This document shows, piece by piece, positions 5,453 through 26,550 of a DNA stretch of 26,755 bases. The DNA lies in the NCBI GenBank assembly GCA_048939465.1, contig JBHLPL010000013.1, forward strand, positions 1-26,755, given 5' to 3'. The stretch is from Promethearchaeota archaeon (GTDB taxonomy: Archaea; Asgardarchaeota; Odinarchaeia; Odinarchaeales; JBHLKK01). A model generated the notes under the pieces. That model was not told where the DNA came from. It ran no database searches and saw only the letters and a program-made list of their open reading frames with translations. The position numbers and the translations under genes are program-made. Every line of letters starts with the position of its first letter. Positions within the stretch are counted from its first letter, which is position 1.

Positions 5453-6277
5453 CTATTTAAACTTGATGGTTTTCGCTCCTGTGGTCTCTTCCAGGCTCCC
5501 CGATCTATAACCCTCCATATCAAGGACAACATAACGATATCCTAGACTCTTCAACCTTCTGGTAATGTTACTCATTGAATTCAGATTGAGCATTTTATTT
5601 AGCTCGTCAAGAGCTACTTCAATTCTCGCGATATTGCCGTGGTCTCGGACTCTAAGTTGTTTAATCCCTGTAAGCCCACGAATCCTTTGCTCTGCCTTTC
5701 CTACTCGAATAAGTCTTTCCTTCGTAATCTTCTGATCGTGTGATATTCTCGAAGAAAGACAAGCCATTTGGGGCTTATCTGCAACATCAGGAACAAGTAT
5801 CTTTGCGATCTCCCTGACTTCTTTCTTGGAGAGACCTACGTCCGCCAATGGAGTGAAGATACCGTCTTCGCTCAGTGCACGGCTTCCCGGACGATATCGC
5901 CTCAAATCGTCGGCATTCAGACCATCTACGATGGCTGCTTTATTCTCCTTCTCTGCAATCTTCTGAAGTTTTGATATCAACTCCTTCTTGCAATAGTAGC
6001 ATCGCATGGGGGAGTTCATAACAAAGTCCTTGTTTTTCAACTCATTAGTTCTTATTACTAGATGCTTAATCCCGATGTCCTTGGCGACGCGTTTTGCATT
6101 TTCGAGCTCCTCTGGCGGTAAGTTAGCTGAATTCGCTGTGACTGCCAGCACTCTTCCATCCAACGCGATTTTGGCTGCTGCAGCCAAGACTGAGCTATCA
6201 ACCCCCCCAGAAAACGCAACCAGAGCACTTCCCATTCTTCGCAATTCATCCAAAAGTTGAGCGAATTTGCCTTTCAA
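5453..6277 (-). CDS. larE: LarE-family ATP-dependent sulfur transferase (PP-loop)
   Basis: VAFSGGVDS PP-loop, RCYYCK, RPG..A, PQMACLSSRI, LRVRDHG, LDMEGYRSGS. Likely TTG start at 6277 after GGAG; track start is 6370. Start is uncertain. Confidence 0.88.
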   Translation of the reverse strand: MKGKFAQLLDELRRMGSALVAFSGGVDSSVLAAAAKIALDGRVLAVTANSANLPPEELENAKRVAKDIGIKHLVIRTNELKNKDFVMNSPMRCYYCKKELISKLQKIAEKENKAAIVDGLNADDLRRYRPGSRALSEDGIFTPLADVGLSKKEVREIAKILVPDVADKPQMACLSSRISHDQKITKERLIRVGKAEQRIRGLTGIKQLRVRDHGNIARIEVALDELNKMLNLNSMSNITRRLKSLGYRYVVLDMEGYRSGSLEETTGAKTIKFK

Positions 6278-6413
6278 AGCTCCTTTGAGTTGAACGGAGA
6301 TACTCTCCCTACATGAAGTATTCAATTGGAAATCCCTCAATAACGCTGAAAATTGAACTCCACAAAACATATAAATATTGTTGATTTTTCTACTGGATAC
6401 CGTAGCGTATTAT

Positions 6414-6487
6414 GCCGGGATAGCCAAGCAGTTAGGCAGCGGACTGCAGATCCGCGTACCTGGGTGCAAATCCCAGTCCCGGCTCCA
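6414..6487 (+). tRNA. tRNA-Cys (anticodon GCA), CCA encoded, no intron
   Basis: Acceptor stem GCCGGGA/TCCCGGC, D stem GCC/GGC, anticodon stem GCGGA/TCCGC with loop CT-GCA-GA, T stem CTGGG/CCCAG, discriminator T then CCA. TATA near 6370 and T-run after the gene. Confidence 0.97.
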
Positions 6488-6776
6488 GTTTTTGCCTTCT
6501 ATCGCAGGCTTTCAGCGTATAATACAATGAATTTGTGACAAGGGGGGATTCCATATCCAGCAACTAAAGAGATTTTCGGATCAACCTTACAGACGAAACA
6601 AATCTTTTATCAAACTGAATACGAACTGATGGATCTTTTGCGTGTGCACTCCTCACAGACATTTGCCGCACTTACCATACAGGAAGAAAACCAGGAAGTT
6701 CTCTTTCACGAAAGCGAGTTTGTGTGATTTGAGAAAGCAGGATTCTGTCTTCAGAACGCGCCTTTTAGACAGGAGG

Positions 6777-7013
6777 TTATTTGACGAATTTGCTACCGGA
6801 AGCCCGCAATATACATCCATAGGGCAGGGAGCAAAGAAGTCTCGCAGTTTCTTTTGGATAAATGAATTTCCCGTCCTCATCGATATATCTCATAAACACA
6901 CTTAGCGCTTTGGTGAGTAGTTTACACGCTCCATCAAAATCTCCTTCTTTGCAGAGCGTCAGACCTTCTTCTGTCATTCTTCTGGCTTCAACTACCTCTT
7001 CTGGATCTGACAT
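6777..7013 (-). CDS. Short hypothetical protein with one TPR-like helical hairpin
   Basis: ARRMTEEGLTLCKEGDFDGACKLLTKALSVF resembles a TPR repeat. ATG at 7013 follows a G-rich RBS-like tract. The C-terminal half is not recognisable. Confidence 0.45.
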   Translation of the reverse strand: MSDPEEVVEARRMTEEGLTLCKEGDFDGACKLLTKALSVFMRYIDEDGKFIYPKETARLLCSLPYGCILRASGSKFVK

Positions 7014-7139
7014 GCTAAAGCCCACCCCCGAACAGATCAATCACTTGGATAGATCATAGTTTCTATGCCTCGACCAAGAAGCGTAAGATAGAGCATAGAA
7101 CGTGAGACTATGACATTTCAACATTGATTTTCGGCCCCT

Positions 7140-7379
7140 TCACTTCTTTCTTATGTAATAGCGAGTGAAATCTCCTTCATCCACAACCCTTAGGAGCTCA
7201 TGGCCAGTACGATTTGACCACCTGGGAAAATCCTCCTTTGCACCGGAATCATTCGATAATACCTCCAAGATATCTCCGGAATCTAGCTCATCCATGGCTT
7301 TCTTGGCTTTAATTATGGGCAAAGGACATTTTAGGCCCCTAGTATCTATTGTCTTTGTGGAATCCAGCTTGTCGCTCAC
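7140..7379 (-). CDS. tusA: TusA/SirA-family sulfur carrier, 79 aa
   Basis: IDTRGLKCPLP (CPxP motif), DILEVLSND.GA..DFP.W....GHE, YYIRK. GTG start at 7379 after AAGGAGGG. The track start at 7463 is over-extended. Confidence 0.93.
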   Translation of the reverse strand: MSDKLDSTKTIDTRGLKCPLPIIKAKKAMDELDSGDILEVLSNDSGAKEDFPRWSNRTGHELLRVVDEGDFTRYYIRKK

Positions 7380-7457
7380 CGCTCCACCCTCCTTATCGCT
7401 TCTCGGACTGCAAGAGTCCCGTCCACCAACAGCTTTCTGGAAAACCCAACCATATTT

Positions 7458-7525
7458 GGTCAAAATCTGTCAAAGATATTTAAATTTTGCCATAAAAAAA
7501 CTTAAATAATCCTTTCAATTTGACA
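7458..7525. promoter_or_regulatory. Divergent tusA/dsrE promoters with TTTGAC boxes
   Basis: Minus TATA TTTAAATA about 7484-7477 and plus TATA CTTAAATA 7501-7508. GTCAAA at 7459 and 7469, TTTGAC at 7519. Confidence 0.4.
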
Positions 7526-7550
7526 TACGAAACTGATCCGTAAGCGAGGG

Positions 7551-7919
7551 ATGTCTATGGGGAAAATCGGCTTCGTGTTAACTTTGGGTCCATATACCCA
7601 CCAAAACACGGATACAACCCTCAGAATGGTAAATGCAGCATTAGAGGAAGGGCATGAAGTGGTCGGAGTATATCTGTATGTAGACGGTGTTTATAATGTC
7701 TCAAACAGAATAGATCCGAAATCTGAGGAGGAACGAAATATCGCTCGAATGTTCGAACGGTTGGCTACTCGGGGGGTTCCTGTAAAGGTCTGTCCAGTAT
7801 GCGGTCATTATAGAGGCATAAATGACGAGAAGATTATGGTAAAGGGTGTTGAATTCGATGGGCTTGGCGCACTTGCCGAAATATTTGAAGCTGCGGATAA
7901 AGTGGTTGCATTAACGTAG
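7551..7919 (+). CDS. dsrE: DsrE/TusD-family sulfurtransferase subunit
   Basis: VLTLGPY, GHEVVGVYLYVDGV, VKVCPVCGHYRG carrying the persulfide-site Cys. First gene of the EFH trio. Confidence 0.85.
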   Translation: MSMGKIGFVLTLGPYTHQNTDTTLRMVNAALEEGHEVVGVYLYVDGVYNVSNRIDPKSEEERNIARMFERLATRGVPVKVCPVCGHYRGINDEKIMVKGVEFDGLGALAEIFEAADKVVALT

Positions 7920-7932
7920 AAGAGGAATAAAT

Positions 7933-8286
7933 ATGAACAAGGTCTTGGTTGTTTTTAGGCAGGGTCCCTATGGAAGTGTTTACCCCATAGAGGCTGCGAG
8001 AGTGATTCAAGGATTATTTGTAATGGACTTGAAGGTCATGGCAGTCTTCATCGATGATGGAGTATACTCACTTACCAAGAATCATAATACTGAAGGAATA
8101 AATATGCAGCCGGTCAAGTTGGCAATTGAGAATATGATAGCAATAGATGTGCCTTTGTACGTAATAAGAGAGTCTCTAGAGGAGAGGGGCTTAGCAAGTG
8201 AAGATTTGGATTTTGAGCCTGAAATTGTCGATCTGGAGACCTTCTCAGAGCTAATACTTGATGCAGATTCAACCATATCCTTTTAG
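7933..8286 (+). CDS. dsrF: DsrF/TusC-family subunit
   Basis: VVFRQGPYG, AVFIDDGVYSL.K, YVIRESLEERGL, D.TISF. Confidence 0.85.
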   Translation: MNKVLVVFRQGPYGSVYPIEAARVIQGLFVMDLKVMAVFIDDGVYSLTKNHNTEGINMQPVKLAIENMIAIDVPLYVIRESLEERGLASEDLDFEPEIVDLETFSELILDADSTISF

Positions 8287-8298
8287 CGAGGCGAGACT

Positions 8299-8622
8299 AT
8301 GGTTTCAGTATTATATTTGCTATTTAAGTCACCCTACAAGAACTTCAACGGAATGGACGCTCTGATGAGAGTTGTCAAATCACAATCAGTCAAAAGCAAA
8401 GTAGGAGTAGCCCTGCTTCAGGACGCCGTTGTTTCCTTGAGGGGGGTTTTAAGTGAGAAAATCGTAGAACTGGCGAAGGAGGGCATTCATGTTATCGCCC
8501 TATCAGAGGATCTTAAGGCAAGGGGGATAGGTTCTACTGTCGACGGGGTTCAACAAGTCAGTTACAGAGAAATAATTAACATAATTATGAACGATTACGA
8601 TAAAGTTGTGTCTTGGGGATAA
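8299..8622 (+). CDS. dsrH: DsrH/TusB-family subunit
   Basis: LFKSP, LLQDAV, ALSEDLKARGI, VSY......I......VVSW. Confidence 0.85.
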   Translation: MVSVLYLLFKSPYKNFNGMDALMRVVKSQSVKSKVGVALLQDAVVSLRGVLSEKIVELAKEGIHVIALSEDLKARGIGSTVDGVQQVSYREIINIIMNDYDKVVSWG

Positions 8623-8624
8623 GT

Positions 8625-8643
8625 GAACAACACTGAGTTGTTC
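8625..8643. other. Perfect 7-bp hairpin just after dsrH stop
   Basis: GAACAAC-ACTGA-GTTGTTC. Confidence 0.6.
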
Positions 8644-8863
8644 GGCGTATCAACGGCCTGAAGTTTTCGGTTCTGGCAAGAATCAGAATTAGCTTCCACA
8701 TTAGAAACGAGCCAGGGTATTTGGAACGATCCTCAGGACCAAGATTAGGGGCTCTTATCGAATTCTGGAATCAAACGAGTTTTCGGCAGGTCCGTAAGGT
8801 TCTTTGGAATGACTTGCGTAATTTTTTTAATATTGCGTTGGATAATATACCTTAGGTGATTAT

Positions 8864-9244
8864 ATGTCGGAGAACCCAAAGTCCAGTCCCGCGAAATCGA
8901 GAAGAAAGACCAGAGGAGCAGGACCTAGACAGCCAATTCATCAAGAATCAGAATCAATCGAGAAACAACCCGAGCGCGTAGAAGAAAAAACATCCACGGA
9001 AAAATCGGATCAGATAGAGAAGCCAACTCCTGGGGAGGAATCCTCGGAGGAGAGGTTAAATGGTGATGCGCGAATTGGAGAAATCATTGAAACATGTCCT
9101 GAGGCAGAACGTATTTTAGAAAAACATTTTAGGGCGTGCGCAAAATGTCCAGCAATTGCGGCAGAAACCATCAGTTTTCAGGTATCAATTCACGGCGCAG
9201 ATCTCAAATCAGTCCTTGACGAACTTGACAAACTGTGCCGGTAA
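8864..9244 (+). CDS. DUF1858-like CxxC domain protein with long disordered N-terminus
   Basis: C-terminal IGEIIETCPEAERILEKHFRACAKCPAIAAETI...VSIHGADLKSVLDELD fits the DUF1858/ScdA_N-like pattern. About 64 low-complexity charged residues precede it. AGGTGA RBS. Confidence 0.7.
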   Translation: MSENPKSSPAKSRRKTRGAGPRQPIHQESESIEKQPERVEEKTSTEKSDQIEKPTPGEESSEERLNGDARIGEIIETCPEAERILEKHFRACAKCPAIAAETISFQVSIHGADLKSVLDELDKLCR

Positions 9245-9334
9245 TCGCCAAAATCCTACTTCTGAGTCTTTTGGGCAATTGTCTTAAAGGGACGTTTAGG
9301 CCCAGGGCTCGCGTAGAAAAGCAACATTTATTAA

Positions 9335-9349
9335 TATAACAATGTTATA
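9335..9349. promoter_or_regulatory. Perfect palindrome at copA promoter (candidate operator)
   Basis: TATAACA-A-TGTTATA immediately 3' of TTTATTAA (9327-9334). Confidence 0.6.
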
Positions 9350-9411
9350 GTCTGAGTAGTGGTTTAGTTTCTTCTATTCAGATTACTGATTAGACTGAAA
9401 GGTCGGTACTT

Positions 9412-11646
9412 ATGGGAAGAGGTTCGAAGTCATCAGAAAAAGAGAGGAAATCTCTGCAAATTGGGGGTATGCATTGCGCAACATGCGTATTGACTGTAGA
9501 GAAGGCTCTGAAGAAACTGGACGGGGTCTACAATGCTACAGTCAATCTTGCCACTGGAAAGGCGTTGGTAGACTATGATCCGAACAAGGTGTCTGATCCG
9601 AAATTCGAAGAAGCGGTACACGATGCCGGATATGAAGTTGTAACAGAGCCAGACAGTGAACAAGTCTCAAGAAGGAAAGAAGTTCGAATGCAAAAACGAC
9701 TCTTCATTTTCAGTCTCGTTTTGAGCATACCTATAGTCCTATACAGCTACAGCGATATTCTACCGTTCATTCTCCCCGAGATTATTCCACGGGCAATACT
9801 GTTGTTTATCTTGACCACACCCGTTCAATTCATAGGTGGATATCAATTCTACAAGGGAGCATATTCTGCACTGATGAACAGAACTGCAAACATGGATGTA
9901 TTGGTTGTCCTAGGCACTTCAGCTGCCTATTTTTACAGCATTGCTGCCACTTTCTTTATTAAAGGACCTTTGTTTTACGAAACATCAGCTTTGTTAATAC
10001 TATTCATTACACTTGGAAGGATGCTTGAAACAATCACAAAGGGCAAGACTTCTGAGGCTATTAGAAGCCTAATGAGACTGAGACCGAAAACTGCAAAGAT
10101 CATAAAAAACGGCGAGGAAACGACTGTTTTGATAGATGATGTTCAAGTTAAGGACATACTTGTTGTCAGACCCGGAGAAAGAATCCCAGTCGATGGTGAA
10201 GTTTTGGACGGGCATTCATCTGTAGATGAGTCCATGATAACCGGGGAATCTATGCCTGTCGAAAAGAAAAAGGGGGACACAGTAATAGGAGCAACGTTGA
10301 ATACTTCTGGTATGTTAAAAATCAACGCAACCAAAGTCGGGAAAGATACCTTGCTAGCCCAGATAATAAAACTAGTTGAGGAAACCCAGGCATCAAAACC
10401 CCCGATACAAAGATTTGCAGATAGAGTTGCGGCTCGTTTTGTGCCTGCAGTCGTAGTCTCGGCCCTAATTACATTCCTTACTTGGACACTAATCGGCATG
10501 GAGTTTTTGTTCTCTTTCATAGTCACGATTTCAGTTCTAGTTATTGCTTGCCCGTGCGCCTTGGGTCTGGCCACACCTGCAGCAGTAACGGTCGGCACAG
10601 GAAAAGGGGCAGAAAATGGGATACTAATAAAAAGCGGAGAAGCTTTGGAAACTGCCCGCAATCTTACTACCATTGTGTTTGATAAGACGGGTACTCTAAC
10701 TGTTGGCAAACCTCACGTTACCGATATAGTTCCGATTGAGGATGGTGCAACAAATTCAACCGAGAGAGATGTGATAAGAACTGCCGCAATTTGCGAAAAA
10801 TTCTCAAATCATCCTTTATCTCTTGCTATAACGGAAAAGGCAAAAGAGATGGGAATAGATATTCCGGATCCGTCGGAATTCAACTATGTTGCCGGACAGG
10901 GGAACGTAGCAAGATTTGACGATAGAAAGATACTGAGCGGTAATAAGAAACTGCTTGCCGGTAGCAAAATAGTCCTTAACGGAGAAGACGAGAGGCTTAT
11001 GAAAAAGCTAGAATCCCAAGGCAAAACGGTAACACTGGTTGCGGAAAACAGCCTGCTAATAGGATTAGTAGCTATGGCAGACACTCTGAAGGAGCATGCG
11101 AAAGACGCAGTGGGTTCACTCAAGAAAATGGGATTAAAAGCAGCTATATTGACAGGAGATAACGAGAGAACAGGCAAAGCTATCGCCCAAGAACTTGGGA
11201 TCGATCATGTTTTGGCTGAAATTCGTCCAGAGGACAAAGCAAAGGAGATAAGAAAGCTGCAAGATATGGGAGAGACGGTAGCCATGGTTGGAGATGGAAT
11301 AAATGATGCCCCGGCCTTAGCCCAAGCCGACATTGGCATCGCCATAGGAAGTGGAACTGATGTCGCCATTGAAACCGGGGAAATAGTGTTAATCAAAGGG
11401 GATCTGAGAGACGTGCCAGCAGCCATTCTTTTAAGCAAGCAGACTGTAAGAAAAGTCAAGCAAAACCTGTTCTGGGCGCTGGCTTACAACGTAGCTGCCA
11501 TACCGATAGCAGCTGGTCTTTTGTTCCCCATAATCGGGCTTCTCCTAAGACCAGAAATAGCTGCATTTGCTATGTCCATGAGTTCGGTGACCGTTGTTAC
11601 AAACTCCCTGTTGCTAAAAAGATATAATCCGAAAATACAAGACTGA
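9412..11646 (+). CDS. copA: Cu(I)-translocating P1B-1 ATPase
   Basis: HMA domain GMHCATC, TGES, TM motif [17 protein letters not shown] phosphorylation site, [12 protein letters not shown] and MSMSS Cu(I) ligands. Confidence 0.96.
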
Positions 11647-11651
11647 AATCA

Positions 11652-12821
11652 TCAGAATTCTATTATCTCAGCGGTTTCAATCGAATCACTGATCAGACTT
11701 CCCAATTCAGCTTCCCTCTCGACATCAAGGATATCGTTCAGATTAGCCGATGTAAGAGGATATTTGGGAACTGCTGTGCAACACGAAGCAGGTCGAATTG
11801 ACAGCTCATAAGTATTTATCCTTTTTGCAATCTGTTCAATCTCAATCTTGTCTAGTCCTATTAAGGGCCGGAAAATGGGTAGTTTCATGCCATAAGTTTC
11901 GACAAAAAGGTTTCTCAGGGTTTGACTTGCCTTCTGACCTAGGCTTTCTCCTGTGACAATGGCCTCGGCTCCCTCTTTTTCTGCTATTTGCTCAGCCAGA
12001 CGGTACATTGACCTACGGCATAGAATGCACAGCATTTTTTGAGGGGCTCTTTCTGTGAATGCCTTCAATATTCTTCCTTGAGGAACAATATACATCCTGA
12101 TTCTATATCCCGAAGCGTACTCCTTTAGTTTATTCGCTACACTGATTACTCTTTTCTTTGGCGACTCATCAACATACGGATGACTGTGGAAAAAAACATA
12201 TACTGGAAGACTGCCTCGTTTCATAATAAGATAGCTTGCAACGGGCGAATCTATGCCACCGGAGAGCATGCAGACAACTTTTCCTTGGGTATTCAGGGGA
12301 AGACCGCGAAGGCCAGCCATTATTTCATGATAAATATAAGCCTTATCTTCTCTAATTTCAGCGTAAATGGTATTTTCCGGTTTGTTGAGATTCACAACTA
12401 TCTCGTGATCAAATGCTTTCAGAATAGCTTCGCCTGCAACCGTCTCCACATCTTTGCTTGTGTATGGATGGGCTCCTGCTCTTCTGGCTCTTACTGCAAA
12501 AGTCTGGCCAGGGACGAATATGGTCTTGGCGTACTCAACAAGCCCCCTAACTACTTCACTGAGCCCGACACTGGAAAGCACGGCAGCAGGAGAGAAAGAC
12601 ATTATGCCAAAAATCTTTCCGAGTGAAGAGCAGAGCCTACCAGCGCTTGGAGAGTCTACAAATATCCGTCCTCTTTCTTTTCGAATACTGTAAGCATTCT
12701 TTTTTTCCTTTAGGGCCGCACGGATACCCTTGATCAGAATCTTTTCAAATCTCTTGCGAGTACTGTCAGATTTTATTCCCATTTCCCCGTATCTTATGAT
12801 TATTGTATCATAAGCGGACAT
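11652..12821 (-). CDS. thiI: tRNA 4-thiouridine synthase ThiI (THUMP + PP-loop, no rhodanese domain)
   Basis: IIRYGEMGIKS, TFAVRARR, LSGGIDSPVA, CILCRR, TGESLGQKASQTL.NL, RPLIGLDK.EI, ASCC. Confidence 0.94.
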   Translation of the reverse strand: MSAYDTIIIRYGEMGIKSDSTRKRFEKILIKGIRAALKEKKNAYSIRKERGRIFVDSPSAGRLCSSLGKIFGIMSFSPAAVLSSVGLSEVVRGLVEYAKTIFVPGQTFAVRARRAGAHPYTSKDVETVAGEAILKAFDHEIVVNLNKPENTIYAEIREDKAYIYHEIMAGLRGLPLNTQGKVVCMLSGGIDSPVASYLIMKRGSLPVYVFFHSHPYVDESPKKRVISVANKLKEYASGYRIRMYIVPQGRILKAFTERAPQKMLCILCRRSMYRLAEQIAEKEGAEAIVTGESLGQKASQTLRNLFVETYGMKLPIFRPLIGLDKIEIEQIAKRINTYELSIRPASCCTAVPKYPLTSANLNDILDVEREAELGSLISDSIETAEIIEF

Positions 12822-12919
12822 TCTGCTTTCCTCATATCAAGAGTCTCTTTTTCTACTTTAACCAGTAGTAGATGAGGCTTGCTACCTAAAAAGCTTAAAT
12901 ATAGCAACACATTAAGAAT

Positions 12920-12934
12920 TATAGCAGTGTTATA
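12920..12934. promoter_or_regulatory. Near-palindrome at HTH regulator promoter (candidate operator)
   Basis: TATAGCA-G-TGTTATA, 13/15 identical to the copA palindrome. Lies over the expected start of transcription downstream of CTTAAATA 12894-12901. Extra half-site TATAGCA at 12900-12906. Confidence 0.55.
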
Positions 12935-12961
12935 TTATCATGATCCCGCCGGTGCTGAATT

Positions 12962-13300
12962 ATGAGTCTTCCTTGTGAAAAAGTGGTAAGTGCGATTCTT
13001 CCTCTGATAAGGGCAGAGATAGCAAAAAGCCTAGTTACGGATTTCAAACTAACCCAAGTAGAAGCTGCAAGGATCCTGGGTCTAACTCAGGCCGCGGTAA
13101 GTCAATATGTCACATCAAAGAGGGGATATAAACTAAGAATTGCTAAATCATCTGCTGCGGCTCGATCCATCAAAAAAACCGCAAAGGAATTGTCAGAGGC
13201 AAGGCTCTCCGAAGAAGAGATCCAGGAGAGGCTTTGCGAGATCTGTCGTATGATAAGAAGAGACTCCAAAGGAATTCGGGCAAAGAAAGTGACAGATTGA
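12962..13300 (+). CDS. XRE-type HTH regulator (COG2522-like) with Cys motifs
   Basis: LPCE....ILP.IRA.IA..L....LTQ.EAARILGLTQAAVSQY...KRG and C-terminal LCEICR. Confidence 0.85.
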   Translation: MSLPCEKVVSAILPLIRAEIAKSLVTDFKLTQVEAARILGLTQAAVSQYVTSKRGYKLRIAKSSAAARSIKKTAKELSEARLSEEEIQERLCEICRMIRRDSKGIRAKKVTD

Positions 13301-13311
13301 TCATTACTCTC

Positions 13312-15300
13312 TCAGCTGTCTTTCCCATAAATGATCATGCCAGTCTTATTATCGGGAGCGAGACCTGCTTTCCTTCGTAGCTCCTCTTTGAATGTTCTGG
13401 AACTAAGTACGGTTATGAATTTCTTTATCCAAGGTTTTTCCAGACTATTATTAAGGATGACAAAATCAAACTTCTCCTGAGCTATCGGAATGAAGTCAAG
13501 ATCATGACTCCTGGCTGCGGCTTCTGTGCCTAGACCTGTATCGACTTTGTTATGCAGGACCGCAGCAGCAACAGCAGAATGGGTTTTTGCTTCCGTTTCA
13601 AAACCTTTAATTCTTTCGGATATCGGTTTGAAGGTTTGATGATTACCTTTGCGAAGTCCGTTGAGCGCCTTCTCCAGTAAAAGTCTCGTACCAGAACCTT
13701 GAATTCTATTGATGAAAACCACATCATCACGCAGTAAATCATCAAGACCGCGAATTTGCTTGGGATTTCCCTTTGGTACAATCAATCCTTGTTTTCGGTT
13801 ATATCCACGAACGATGACAACTTTGCCTGTTAATCCATATTTGCCAACAAAAGGTATATTATACTCTCCGGTTTCAGCATCAAGGAGGTGAATTCCAGCA
13901 ATATCAGCTTCCTCTCTCTTAAGGGCCCTTAATCCTCCAATCGATCCTGCATTTATTGTTTTTGCATGGAATCCGCCGTGACGATCAAACAGCAGAGAGA
14001 GAATCAAATCAACGCCTGCACAATGACTGCCAATAATAATAATGTCAGCCGGTTTCAGCTCATCTCCAAACAGACTGACCTCAACTGGGTCTTGTGGGAA
14101 GAGGAGTTCTTTATTCTCCGGTATTTGTATGAAGCCGTCAGCTTCTGCTAGCGTAGTGATAGCGCCGGATCCTTTCAGCGAAGGATAAACCACATATCCC
14201 TCCCTTGTCTCAACGATATTTACGGGTAGAAATTGCCTTCTTCCCGAAACGGAGTGGATTTTTGTGGCGAGTCTGGCAGATATCTTAGCTGTTGGCTTAT
14301 CGATAATTCCCGCAAGACTGTGTATTGCCGGACGGACAAATATATTAAACAGGGTTAAGGCAGAGGTGGGGTATCCCGGAAGCCCAAAAACAGGTTTGTC
14401 ATCCACAACTCCGATAATGGTGGGCTTACCCGGTTTCACAGCAATCCCATGAATGAGAATTCCCGGTTTTCCAAGTTCATCGATTATATTGTATAACATA
14501 TCCCCCATACCGGCGGATGTACTACCGCTTGTTAGAACCATATCTGCCTTGGCAAGTCCTTGACCAAGCTTCTCCTTCAATTCTTCTTCGTTATCTCGGC
14601 TTATTCCCAGAAGAATTGGAAGGCCGCCACTTTCCTCCACGGCTGCAGCCATTGAATATGAATTAACATCGAATACTTTTCCGTAATCAAGAGATTCACC
14701 AGGCGGCATGATTTCGCTGCCTGTAGAGAGAATGGCCACTCTTGGCTTGCGAAAAACCTCAACTTCGGTCATTCCCACCGCCGCCAAAACACCAATTTCT
14801 CTAGAAGTTAAGACTTGTCCTTTCCTTAGAATTAGTTCTCCCGTCATGATATCGGAGCCTGCTGCCGTTATGTTCTCCATAGGCCGAATCGACTTGTAGA
14901 TGTCTACAGTCCCCTGAGTCTGAGATGTGTATTCAACCATCACTACAGCAGTGGCACCTTTAGGCAGTGGTGCACCAGTTGAAATCTCGAAGGCCTCACC
15001 ACTTCTAATCTCGGATTCAGGCACTTCTCCTGCTTCCACCCTGCCTACAACTTTGAGCCTCCTTGGCTCTGTTTCTTCGGCTCCAAATGAATCATCAGCC
15101 AAAATAGCGAATCCGTCCATACTAGCCCGGTCAAATCCCGGAACATCGACCGATGAGACAATATTCTCCGCAAGAACCCTCTTGAACGCGGCAACTAAGG
15201 ATACCCTCTCAACGGTAGGAACCAGTCTGAGGTGTTTCTTCAATATCTTGCGAGCTTGCTCCAAAGTAACTAGGTCCTTGAAAATCTTTCGTTTCTTCAA
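13312..15300 (-). CDS. moeA: Molybdopterin molybdotransferase MoeA fused to C-terminal periplasmic-binding-protein-like domain
   Basis: PGFDRASMDGFA, ISTGAPLP.GA.AVVMVE, STGSEI, VKPGKP, GLPGYP, then GSHC, SIGGL.AL....ADIAGIHL, INRIQGSGTR, THSAVA..V. TTG start overlaps the upstream stop by 4 nt. Confidence 0.93.
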   Translation of the reverse strand: MKKRKIFKDLVTLEQARKILKKHLRLVPTVERVSLVAAFKRVLAENIVSSVDVPGFDRASMDGFAILADDSFGAEETEPRRLKVVGRVEAGEVPESEIRSGEAFEISTGAPLPKGATAVVMVEYTSQTQGTVDIYKSIRPMENITAAGSDIMTGELILRKGQVLTSREIGVLAAVGMTEVEVFRKPRVAILSTGSEIMPPGESLDYGKVFDVNSYSMAAAVEESGGLPILLGISRDNEEELKEKLGQGLAKADMVLTSGSTSAGMGDMLYNIIDELGKPGILIHGIAVKPGKPTIIGVVDDKPVFGLPGYPTSALTLFNIFVRPAIHSLAGIIDKPTAKISARLATKIHSVSGRRQFLPVNIVETREGYVVYPSLKGSGAITTLAEADGFIQIPENKELLFPQDPVEVSLFGDELKPADIIIIGSHCAGVDLILSLLFDRHGGFHAKTINAGSIGGLRALKREEADIAGIHLLDAETGEYNIPFVGKYGLTGKVVIVRGYNRKQGLIVPKGNPKQIRGLDDLLRDDVVFINRIQGSGTRLLLEKALNGLRKGNHQTFKPISERIKGFETEAKTHSAVAAAVLHNKVDTGLGTEAAARSHDLDFIPIAQEKFDFVILNNSLEKPWIKKFITVLSSRTFKEELRRKAGLAPDNKTGMIIYGKDS

Positions 15301-16568
15301 ATGCCCTCACCTTCGATTTGCTCTCGAATCAGAAGAACCTCCACCTCTTCGCCTTCTTCAATTCCTTCCTTATTCTCAGGTATGATGACAATGCCGTTTG
15401 CCTTCACCATGCTTGAGAGTATGGCCGACCCAGCCACTCTAACGGGTTCAACAAGATATTCTCCCTTCACACGTTTAACAAGGACTCTAGCAAAGTCTCG
15501 TCTACCGACGTTCGAGGGTATGCGTCTGGTGATCCTCCCTTTAACTAGCGGTAATATCTGGCCGGGAGTCTGACCAGATATTCTTTGAATTACTTTGTGA
15601 CCAAAGACATATACGCTGATCATTGCAGCTACGGGATTTCCAGGAACCAGGATTACCGGTTTATTCTTGACTAGTGCCAGCCCAGTAGGTTTGCCAGGTC
15701 GCATAGATATGCCGTGAACGACTAATTCCCCCACGGAGGCTACTACTTCGGGAGCCAAATCTTTTTTGCCCACTGATGTTCCACCCATAAGAATTACCAT
15801 ATCCGCTTTGATTGTTCCTTCCAGCAGTTTGGCTTTTATTTTGACGGCGTCATCTTGAACGATTCCTAAATTCACCGGAACCCCGAGCATTTCCCTTACG
15901 AGGGCTGAAATCGTGGGCGCGTTTGTGTTAACGATCTTTCCAGGAGAAGGGACATCTTCTGGTTCTATCAATTCATCCCCTATGGAGACTATTGCAATAC
16001 GAGGCTTTCTGAAAACCTTGATCGAATGGACGTTGATAGCATACAGTATACCTATGTCTTGAGGTTTTAGTATTGTACCTCGCTTCAAAACCAAATGGCC
16101 TTTTCGAACATCTTCTCCTGCCAACGAAACGTTCTCTTTTGGTACTGACGGTCTATAAATCTCAATATTGGTTTCATCCAATTTGTTTATATATTCAAGC
16201 ATAACTACTGCATCCGCCCCAGGAGGCAACTGTCCTCCGGTCATTATCAGTATGGCTTGGTTCTCTTTTACACCAGTGTCAGGGATTTGTCCCGCAGTTA
16301 TTGAGTCGACGACGGAGAAGGTTAGAGGGTTGGTCTCCGATGCTCCAAACGTATCTTTTGCTCTAACGGCGTAACCATCCATAGCAGATCTATTGAAACT
16401 AGGAACATCTGACGCTGATTGAATATCCTCAGCTAGGATACGATTTAGTCCATCAATTGCTTTGATTTCTTCAGTTTCACAGAGGAACTCAATTAAGGGA
16501 AGAAAGGTTTCTAGAGCGATCTTGACATCCGTTGTTTTGTCAAAACCCCTCATCTGAACGTCCTTCAT
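15297..16568 (-). CDS. moeA: Molybdopterin molybdotransferase MoeA
   Basis: PSFNRSAMDGYA, IMTGGQLP.GADAVVMLE, SIGDEL, MRPGKP, PGNPVAA, GSAILSSM..ANG. ATG at 16568 after AGGAG. The track start at 16727 is over-extended. Confidence 0.93.
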   Translation of the reverse strand: MKDVQMRGFDKTTDVKIALETFLPLIEFLCETEEIKAIDGLNRILAEDIQSASDVPSFNRSAMDGYAVRAKDTFGASETNPLTFSVVDSITAGQIPDTGVKENQAILIMTGGQLPPGADAVVMLEYINKLDETNIEIYRPSVPKENVSLAGEDVRKGHLVLKRGTILKPQDIGILYAINVHSIKVFRKPRIAIVSIGDELIEPEDVPSPGKIVNTNAPTISALVREMLGVPVNLGIVQDDAVKIKAKLLEGTIKADMVILMGGTSVGKKDLAPEVVASVGELVVHGISMRPGKPTGLALVKNKPVILVPGNPVAAMISVYVFGHKVIQRISGQTPGQILPLVKGRITRRIPSNVGRRDFARVLVKRVKGEYLVEPVRVAGSAILSSMVKANGIVIIPENKEGIEEGEEVEVLLIREQIEGEGI

Positions 16569-25650: not shown

Positions 25651-26550
25651 ATGTTTCTTTTTAAGAGAGAACAGAAAGTCTTTGATATAAACGGAATTAA
25701 GGTTGGCGGTCAACCTGGACAGCTTCCAACAGTTCTTATTGGAAGTGTTTTCTATAAGGGGATGAAGCAGGTAAGAAATCACGAGAAAGGGATTTTTGAG
25801 CGGGACAAAATCGAGAATTATATTAAAAAAGCGGATAGCTTGTCGGAGGAGACGGGCAATCCCCATTTTCTTGACGTAATCGCTTCTTCTCGAGAGGCAA
25901 TGATTAAGTATCTAAGTTTTGTGTCTGAAATTACGGAGGCCCCATTCCTCATCGATGGTACTACCAAGGATGTGAGGATTGCTGGAGCAGAATATGTGAA
26001 CGAGGCAGGACTTGCCAACAGGGCAATATGGAACTCAATCTCTCTCGAAACTACAAGACGCGAACTGTCAAGTCTTAGAGATTATAAGATAAAATCAGCC
26101 ATTCTTTTGACATTCAATCCGCTGAATTACAGGTCAGAAGGAAGAATTGAAGTCCTTAGAGGACTACTTGAATTGGCCGAGAGAGGCAGTGTTGAGAATA
26201 CTCTTGTCGACACCACGGTCCTCGATATGCCAAGTATCGGATTCGCAGCCCAGGCAATACGCTCTGTAAAAGAGATTTATGGGCTGCCGAGTGGTTGTGC
26301 TCCTGCGAATGCAACATACATGTGGAAAAAAAAGAAGCAGGACTTTCTTGCGGGGGCTTTCAAGGTGTGTGATTCGGCAACACATGCGTTTCTTGAGGCA
26401 ATGACCGCCGACTTCCTAATATATGGACCGGTTAGATCATGCAGACGTGTCTTCAAAGTTTCAGCTATGACAGATGCGCTAATCGCCCACTACATGAGTC
26501 AGTTCACAAAACCTTTGACAAAGAACCATCCCTTTTACTGCATCTTTTGA
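25651..26550 (+). CDS. mtrH: MtrH-like pterin:corrinoid methyltransferase
   Basis: MFLFKREQKVFDINGIKVGGQPGQLPTVLIGSVFY, FERDK.E..I......SEETGNP, PFLID.T....RIAG, IWNSI, GLPSGCAP.NA, ADFLIYGP. No other mtr subunits adjacent. Confidence 0.85.
   Translation: MFLFKREQKVFDINGIKVGGQPGQLPTVLIGSVFYKGMKQVRNHEKGIFERDKIENYIKKADSLSEETGNPHFLDVIASSREAMIKYLSFVSEITEAPFLIDGTTKDVRIAGAEYVNEAGLANRAIWNSISLETTRRELSSLRDYKIKSAILLTFNPLNYRSEGRIEVLRGLLELAERGSVENTLVDTTVLDMPSIGFAAQAIRSVKEIYGLPSGCAPANATYMWKKKKQDFLAGAFKVCDSATHAFLEAMTADFLIYGPVRSCRRVFKVSAMTDALIAHYMSQFTKPLTKNHPFYCIF

Follow-up and report, generated by a model that had tools for sequence, protein, structure and literature searches.

Where does the sulfur go when a TusA-DsrEFH relay has neither DsrC nor TusE to receive it? 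The question is raised by a 26,755-nucleotide stretch of DNA from a Promethearchaeota archaeon of the Odinarchaeales (contig JBHLPL010000013.1 of assembly GCA_048939465.1), here called the window, in which a tusA gene is divergent from dsrE-dsrF-dsrH. DsrEFH has so far been tied either to DsrC, in the Dsr pathway, or to TusE, in tRNA thiolation. An initial annotation, made from the letters of the window, looked for the acceptor next door and proposed that persulfide passes directly to ThiI, LarE and molybdopterin synthesis, whose genes appeared to form a sulfur-relay island with the module. Comparison with relatives leads us to a different explanation, a persulfide relay that is independent of DsrC and most probably supplies an Hdr-type reductase. 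We assign this explanation, taken as a whole, a probability of about 0.5; the choice of Hdr as the partner, which is read from gene content and gene order, we would place a shade under even odds.

The genes of the module are as follows.

7140-7463, minus strand: tusA, single-Cys sulfur carrier (open reading frame, ORF; Pfam PF01206, 92.3 bits)
7551-7919, plus strand: dsrE, active-site subunit (ORF, with the gene taken to span 7557-7919; Pfam DsrE, PF02635, 84.6 bits)
7933-8286, plus strand: dsrF, non-catalytic subunit (Pfam DsrE, PF02635, 69.3 bits)
8299-8622, plus strand: dsrH, non-catalytic subunit (Pfam DsrH, PF04077, 41 bits; TIGR03011, 50.3 against a cut-off of 49.2)

The real start of tusA is probably the GTG at 7379, which would give a protein of 79 residues, as in relatives.

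DsrEFH without DsrC in Asgard archaea

Family searches covered 400 Asgard genomes, of which 90 are of high quality. The Pfam DsrC model matched none of them and did match the Escherichia coli positive control. A DsrH homolog turned up in 165 of the 400, including 44 of the high-quality set. Thus, DsrC-less DsrEFH is real and phylum-wide in Asgard. It is not confined to Asgard; the control genomes of Thermotoga maritima and Methanosarcina acetivorans have DsrH and gave no DsrC match.

The host is a metagenome-assembled genome (MAG) of 1.96 Mb, 91% complete with 3.8% contamination, of which the window is contig 11. As the initial annotation had observed, family searches of the remaining window gave no DsrC, MnmA, DsrAB or cysteine desulfurase, and its expectation that no DsrC/TusE partner is encoded elsewhere was borne out, since PF04358 had no match in the whole genome. 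The search that it had proposed for dsrAB was likewise empty, with no genomic match to the sulfite reductase family NIR_SIR (PF01077). The sole match to MnmA (PF03054) reached 27 bits, in a 339-residue protein that scores better as ATP_bind_3 (Ncs6/TtuA-like). With no DsrC/TusE, MnmA or sulfite reductase found, the relay would have to end on some other acceptor. A word-based search for DsrE homologs yielded 10 matches and was less informative than the genome searches; the closest homologs belong to Candidatus Hodarchaeota (83% identity) and Odinarchaeia (59%).

A recurrent cluster with Hdr subunits

What stands beside dsrEFH when the module is followed across the phylum? Our survey covered 26 genera with 60 Asgard loci, in batches of 40 and 20, and took the 10 kb on either side of dsrEFH in each. 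These flanks were searched with the window proteins; for partner counts, all ORFs of the first 40 loci were clustered. In the first batch, clustering placed dsrE-dsrF-dsrH side by side at 38 of the 40 loci (in L065 and L084, by our locus numbers, DsrH was recovered by phmmer only); in the second, all 20 loci have the contiguous order, L199 being a truncated locus. Of the first 40, 30 had TusA, 27 a DrsE_2/DsrE2-type protein and 20 an AsnC regulator. HdrB with two CCG domains followed in 16 and HdrC in 13, while HdrA, MvhD, a hydrogenase-small-subunit-like protein and an FrhB/GltD fusion were each found in 12.

In two Asgard families (f22 and f23) and part of a third (f31), these partners form one co-directional cluster, tusA-dsrE-dsrF-dsrH-drsE2-hdrC-hdrB-hdrA-mvhD-(small-subunit-like)-(frhB/gltD)-tusA, with asnC divergent. 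The second batch added two further genera with the same cluster, and adjacent hdrCBA-mvhD was seen in about 8-10 of the 26 sampled genera. The loci are L078:8790-18676 (genome G242), L066-L069, L071, L073, L076, L077, L082, L085, L200 and L202. Since we saw no gene for a hydrogenase large subunit within the cluster, we refrain from naming it an Mvh hydrogenase operon. Outside Asgard, the DsrE proteins nearest to that of the window, at 38-44% identity, come from Anaerolineae, other Chloroflexota, a Spirochaetes MAG and one further MAG, and their loci too carry dsrEFH-tusA-drsE2-hdrC(B)-hdrA-mvhD in one direction (L107:9998-17005 and L108:9998-17113, from Chloroflexia and Anaerolineaceae MAGs; L106; L119). 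Thus, the link between DsrEFH and Hdr is not confined to Asgard. Full-text literature searches found no description of a dsrEFH-hdr cluster in anaerobes. Because the conserved partners are the DsrE2 carrier, AsnC and HdrC-HdrB-HdrA-MvhD, the relay most likely delivers to Hdr.

Cysteines available for a relay

Among solved structures, DsrE of the window is best matched by Allochromatium vinosum DsrE (2HY5_A), whose Cys78 aligns with Cys81 in the numbering of the 122-residue ORF, and Cys81 is invariant in 41 of 41 Asgard sequences. A second cysteine, Cys84, lies in the stretch VCPVCGHYRG (CPVC at window positions 7791-7802); at this position, 21 of the 41 sequences have Cys and the other 20 have Trp. 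DsrF has its best match in 2HY5_B, the A. vinosum DsrF (6.7e-15), and DsrH in 2HY5_C, with Ala at the position of A. vinosum Cys20. Both window proteins have zero cysteines, and across the 41 Asgard sequences neither subunit has a conserved one. By homology to 2HY5, DsrEFH is predicted to assemble as an E2F2H2 heterohexamer. The TusA cysteine sits in the motif GLKCPLP and is conserved in 31 of 31 Asgard proteins, as is the single cysteine of the DsrE2-type carrier in 27 of 27. E. coli YchN also has a CxxC of the DsrE type.

The place of the window in the DsrE tree

Does the window belong with the loci that carry the Hdr cluster? In the DsrE tree, Asgard sequences split into two clades (support 100/99). 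Most Hdr operons belong to clade A. The window falls in clade B, where its sister is the same-order family f2 (support 95/87). Two other families of clade B, f13 and f28, have tusA, drsE2 and dsrEFH and no adjacent enzyme gene. Clade-B DsrE always carries the second cysteine (CPVC, invariant in the clade alignment), which could be a resolving cysteine and would then alter the chemistry of the carrier. A Helarchaeota locus of clade B has drsE2-hdrC-hdrB divergent from asnC-dsrEFH. Since Hdr operons lie mainly outside clade B, the case for Hdr in the window is indirect: it draws on three things, namely the Helarchaeota locus, the Chloroflexota relatives and the presence of all the parts on other contigs of the same genome.

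Clade B also includes a stand-alone group of f31. Six f31 loci (L184, L187, L188 and L196-L198) have a lone dsrEFH, no tusA or drsE2 found nearby, and an FrhB/GltD-like gene ~2.3-3.7 kb from dsrE. In L183, also of f31, the FrhB/GltD-like gene is ~7.5 kb away and a tusA is present.

A proposed relay dispersed over three contigs

All parts of the proposed relay are present in the host genome, spread over three contigs. Contig 33 (L094:8141-11465) carries a second tusA (91 residues) and a DsrE2-type gene (142 residues), which converge on a SepCysS gene (TIGR02539, 395 bits) that is overlapped by a DUF169 gene. Contig 56 carries a ten-gene hdrC-hdrB/hdrA/mvhD cluster, with two hdrC-hdrB pairs, hdrA genes and MvhD modules; it is not beside tusA or dsrE. 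Potential suppliers of sulfur are encoded as well. The whole-genome search for iscS/sufS and sepCysS that the initial annotation had called for found SufS, a NifS/IscS-like desulfurase and SepCysS on contigs other than that of the window, together with a third, SufS-like protein, and the genome has two rhodanese proteins of tandem-domain type. A YeeE/YedE thiosulfate importer was also considered as a source and rejected, since no such gene (PF04143) was found in the genome.

We propose that the relay would work as follows. Sulfane sulfur would be supplied by a desulfurase, a rhodanese or environmental polysulfide, and TusA would take it up as a persulfide on its single cysteine. From TusA, the persulfide would pass to Cys81 of DsrE within DsrEFH, in which the cysteine-less F and H subunits would be structural. 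Sulfur would then be exchanged between DsrEFH and the single-Cys carrier of DsrE2 type, whose persulfide may be offered, in the stead of DsrC, to an HdrB-type subunit at its CCG-domain site. Using low-potential electrons, the Hdr-type reductase would convert the carrier persulfide to sulfide. In effect, Hdr would fill the place that DsrC and DsrMK or DsrAB hold in Dsr organisms. Each of these transfers, the direction of sulfur flow and the Hdr endpoint in this genome are what we infer from the genes. In work cited in PMC10504309, DsrC of Desulfovibrio vulgaris was reported to interact with FlxABCD-HdrABC.

More tentatively, the module of the window might be a dispersed form of a system, found in Asgard and in some anaerobic Chloroflexota/Spirochaetota, in which TusA-DsrEFH-DsrE2 replaces DsrC as the substrate of HdrABC-MvhD. 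If so, Hdr of non-methanogens would gain a physiological substrate, a carrier persulfide or polysulfide, and the cluster would define a cytoplasmic, possibly electron-bifurcating, reductase of sulfane sulfur.

Several points weigh against Hdr as the endpoint. The link is drawn from gene neighbourhood alone. In this genome, dsrEFH, the second tusA-drsE2 pair and hdr lie on three contigs, so that it offers no operon evidence of its own, and Hdr genes are common in Asgard regardless of DsrEFH, which makes their co-occurrence weak evidence. The pair of the second tusA and drsE2 lies opposite SepCysS, as would fit a biosynthetic role. The Hdr operon is mainly a feature of clade A, and clade B, including the f2 sisters, f13 and f28, is mostly without an adjacent enzyme. 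Finally, the extra invariant cysteine of clade-B DsrE does not occur in clade A and may mean a different chemistry.

Other destinations for the sulfur

The strongest rival is a general biosynthetic carrier. TusA-DsrEFH would then be a cytoplasmic buffer or carrier of sulfane sulfur downstream of the desulfurases, with several acceptors (SepCysS, an Ncs6/TtuA-type thiolase, Fe-S assembly) and no dedicated reductase. The SufS and NifS/IscS-like desulfurases encoded in the genome are consistent with such a role, as is the convergence of the second tusA-drsE2 pair on SepCysS-DUF169; that pair is possibly a persulfide supply for tRNA-dependent cysteine synthesis. Clade-B modules mostly stand alone with no enzyme gene near, and TusA of E. 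coli is pleiotropic. However, the ~235 of 400 Asgard genomes without a DsrH match need the same biosyntheses, no biosynthetic acceptor is conserved next to the module in the 60 Asgard loci, and the recurrent operon partner, where there is any, is Hdr. We therefore regard a general carrier as unlikely, though it is the alternative to be taken most seriously. In other Asgard families, the tusA-drsE2 pair adjoins dsrEFH instead of SepCysS.

The proposal of the initial annotation fares less well. It holds that TusA-DsrEFH feeds persulfide directly to [4Fe-4S] ThiI, to LarE and to molybdopterin synthesis, and that the island is a biosynthetic supply unit. The remaining genes of the supposed island are these.

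5453-6370, minus strand: larE-family PP-loop sulfur insertase (TIGR00268, 290 bits against a cut-off of 150)
6414-6487, plus strand: tRNA-Cys (GCA), found by ARAGORN
8864-9244, plus strand: DUF1858-like small gene (PF08984 and TIGR03980, both below cut-off)
9412-11646, plus strand: CopA-type heavy-metal P1B ATPase (HMA, E1-E2_ATPase and Hydrolase domains)
11652-12821, minus strand: thiI/ttuI, [4Fe-4S]-type, rhodanese-less (TIGR00342, 335 bits against 264.5)
12962-13300, plus strand: small Cys-bearing helix-turn-helix (HTH) gene, 112 residues, divergent from thiI (no Pfam or NCBIfam match)
13312-15300, minus strand: moeA fused to a PBP-like domain (NF011068, 822 bits against a cut-off of 534)
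15297-16568, minus strand (ORF to 16727): second moeA (MoeA_N, MoCF_biosynth and MoeA_C domains), whose product has 423 residues in a relative

ORF listing, tRNA scan and family searches found every gene that the initial annotation had named where it had placed it, and its reading of the cysteines was correct. LarE has the PP-loop SGGVDS, and its CxxC plus distal cysteine are Cys124/127 and Cys204, the cluster ligands of [4Fe-4S]-type LarE. ThiI, with 389 residues and ThiI_fer, THUMP and ThiI domains only, lacks a rhodanese domain; its CxxC and distal CC are Cys265/268 and Cys347/348, and Methanococcus maripaludis TtuI has the same numbering, Cys265/268/348 (PMC9825150). The island is less purely concerned with sulfur than had been claimed: the DUF1858-like gene, the copA ATPase and the small HTH gene interpose between dsrH and moeA. 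The DUF1858-like protein has a redox-disulfide-like domain of the hybrid-cluster-associated kind, with Cys78/92/95/125. It was considered as a substitute for DsrC and rejected, since it adjoins dsrH in this genus only.

For direct feeding speak the adjacency of the genes, both in the window and in a same-genus MAG, and the lack of a DsrC/TusE acceptor. LarE chemistry is also favourable: T. maritima LarE, which has three cysteines, can draw sulfane sulfur from the persulfide on IscS but cannot use Na2S (PMC9283937), so that a persulfide carrier for LarE is chemically plausible. ThiI of the [4Fe-4S] class, by comparison, can use free sulfide in vitro (PMC9825150), a point against direct feeding. 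A search of the 91%-complete genome for LarC (PF01969) gave no match, and LarE thus looks orphaned and may thiolate something other than the nickel-pincer cofactor. As for molybdopterin, MoeA inserts the Mo/W metal and handles no sulfur, and moaD, moaE and moeB, which belong to the sulfur steps, are not encoded in the window.

Comparative evidence also speaks against direct feeding. A single genome is too little to judge whether the genes cluster above chance; whether the clustering is conserved was assessed in relatives. LarE, ThiI and MoeA lie beside dsrEFH in 1 of the 60 Asgard loci, that of the same-genus MAG, and are absent from the 59 others. Across prokaryotes, they lie next to 1 of the best 80 DsrE loci (one genome per species) and not to the other 79, in a scan whose peptide pattern drew mainly DsrE of type I from proteobacteria. 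Synteny between the window and the same-genus MAG runs over more than 20 kb and takes in unrelated genes, among them CDC48, PadR and agmatinase, as shared ancestry alone would predict. In a relative whose DsrE is 78% identical, the divergent tusA and dsrEFH are kept, the flanks are IleRS, an AsnC regulator and BacA, and the island is lost. In two closed genomes of the same order (G300 and G303), thiI lies ~0.93 Mb from dsrH. ThiI is present in 302 of the 400 Asgard genomes, among them members of families without DsrH (27 of 31 in f8, 20 of 22 in f11, 16 of 19 in f14, and all 5 in each of f15 and f27), and one Asgard genus has DsrH in most of its genomes and ThiI in few. ThiI and DsrEFH are phyletically uncoupled.

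The location beside larE, tRNA-Cys, thiI and moeA is genus-specific synteny and no functional unit. Co-localisation across genomes, which the initial annotation proposed to quantify, extends to the same-genus MAG only. The clustering is not conserved, and no DsrC/TusE was found elsewhere in the genome; what survives of the earlier proposal is a DsrEFH without DsrC/TusE, and what falls away, for want of comparative support, is the choice of ThiI, LarE and molybdopterin synthesis as its acceptors. Direct feeding is therefore improbable, clearly more so than a general carrier.

Nor do the promoters tie the island together. The palindrome TATAAC-N3-GTTATA has an exact copy, TATAACAATGTTATA, upstream of copA (9335-9349) and a copy with a single mismatch, TATAGCAGTGTTATA, in the interval that separates thiI from the HTH gene (12920-12934). 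Both sites are intergenic, and the palindrome was not found in the tusA/dsrE or the larE/tRNA-Cys intergenic region. It thus marks the copA and thiI/HTH promoters and not that of the module, which is a further point against direct feeding. Its count in the window is at chance level (2 against 0.88 expected; 23 of 100 shuffles reach 2). A shared operator that would tie dsrEFH to thiI was rejected on these two grounds.

An oxidative role, or the handling of thiosulfonate, has scarcely better prospects and in our estimate slightly poorer ones. The carriers would then feed an oxidising Hdr-like complex, as in sHdr-LbpA systems or with DsrE3A/TusA of Metallosphaera cuprina. Two HdrC-HdrB pairs and HdrA in one cluster would suit such a complex, and TusA and a DsrE2-type carrier are typical companions of sHdr (PMC11094781). 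On the other hand, MvhD and additional HdrA copies, which classic sHdr lacks, are part of the Hdr clusters, and the genome has no YeeE/YedE transporter. It does encode two GcvH-family proteins, a point in favour, but their genes are away from hdr, and they may be either LbpA or glycine-cleavage H proteins. The host, moreover, is apparently anaerobic, and no electron acceptor suggests itself. The classical role of TusBCD in the synthesis of tRNA 2-thiouridine (s2U34) can be dismissed almost entirely: NCBIfam TusD, TusC and TusB are indeed the best-scoring named models, but there is no TusE/DsrC and no MnmA beyond the Ncs6/TtuA-like match, and the scores of TusD (68.1 against 89.25), TusC (61.0 against 94.15) and TusA (46.7 against 78) fall below the NCBIfam equivalog cut-offs, which the TusB domain model alone passes.

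Other contents of the window

The rest of the window is housekeeping, with genes for geranylgeranyl reductase, CDC48, PadR, agmatinase, pyruvoyl arginine decarboxylase, PurP and MtrH. The last of these, at 25651-26550, is a homolog of an MtrH-family methyltransferase subunit in a non-methanogenic Asgard genome. The ~650 bp between tRNA-Cys and tusA (6488-7139) hold unassigned short ORFs only (6653-6880 and 6777-7040, both on the minus strand). Since ~180 bp separate larE from tusA in the same-genus MAG, the longer interval of the window resembles an insertion. A CopA homolog lies ~1 kb from dsrEFH in an unrelated Asgard genus (L185:12296, genome G320); this is a single case and probably a coincidence.

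Significance

Our comparison carries a caution, in that a persuasive functional island in one MAG dissolves when relatives are compared. It also brings out a broader pattern. DsrEFH is widespread in a phylum without DsrC or TusE, where it recurs in one cluster with Hdr subunits. What Hdr acts on in non-methanogenic archaea is an old question, and the dsrEFH-hdr operon offers a concrete candidate substrate. Syntrophy based on hydrogen and sulfur is central to models of the origin of eukaryotes from Asgard archaea.

Comparison with known systems

The idea that Hdr acts on persulfides bound to TusA and DsrE appears in a published figure legend for one Asgard species; no operon survey, DsrEFH/DsrC analysis or test is reported there. 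Among characterised systems, the sHdr clusters can be compared on the side of the reductase; they combine TusA, DsrE2 and DsrE3 with sHdrC1B1AHC2B2 (PMC11094781; M. cuprina, PMC4175335). Both have carriers of the TusA and DsrE families encoded beside an Hdr-like complex, which in sHdr systems feed it protein-bound sulfur. However, sHdr uses a homotrimeric DsrE3, needs LbpA and oxidises sulfur, whereas the clusters of Asgard and Chloroflexota have DsrEFH, MvhD and a module of FrhB/GltD type.

On the side of the carriers, three systems invite comparison. DsrEFH of type II, in the YTD cluster (yeeE-tusA-dsrEFH), occurs in sulfate reducers and cable bacteria together with reductive DsrAB/DsrC and YeeE (PMC13293266). 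It resembles the Asgard module in having TusA, a DsrEFH-like trimer with one active cysteine and anaerobic hosts, but the genome studied here has no PF04143, PF01077 or PF04358, and the window proteins are recognised by the standard models for DsrE and DsrH, type I being the nearest to them. The TusA-TusBCD-TusE-MnmA relay of E. coli (2D1P) likewise couples TusA to a heterotrimer of DsrE/F/H type with a single active cysteine on the D/E subunit; here the differences are the absence of TusE and MnmA and the scores of TusA, TusD and TusC under their equivalog cut-offs.

The closest likeness is to DsrEFH of A. vinosum (2HY5/2HYB, type I), with the same E-F-H gene order, the best structure match for all subunits and the active-site cysteine of DsrE; DsrE of proteobacterial sulfur oxidisers is ~35-40% identical to that of the window. 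The Rhd-TusA-DsrE2 relay of A. vinosum is paralleled by tusA alongside dsrEFH and by a DsrE2-type carrier elsewhere in the Asgard genome. DsrEFH has been described with a DsrC partner (PMC3397948), whereas the Asgard genome lacks DsrC, DsrAB and DsrMK, its DsrH has no equivalent of Cys20 and its DsrE has an extra cysteine. The host is an anaerobic Asgard archaeon, and in its relatives the cluster that begins with the same three genes runs on not into dsrC but into hdrCBA-mvhD.

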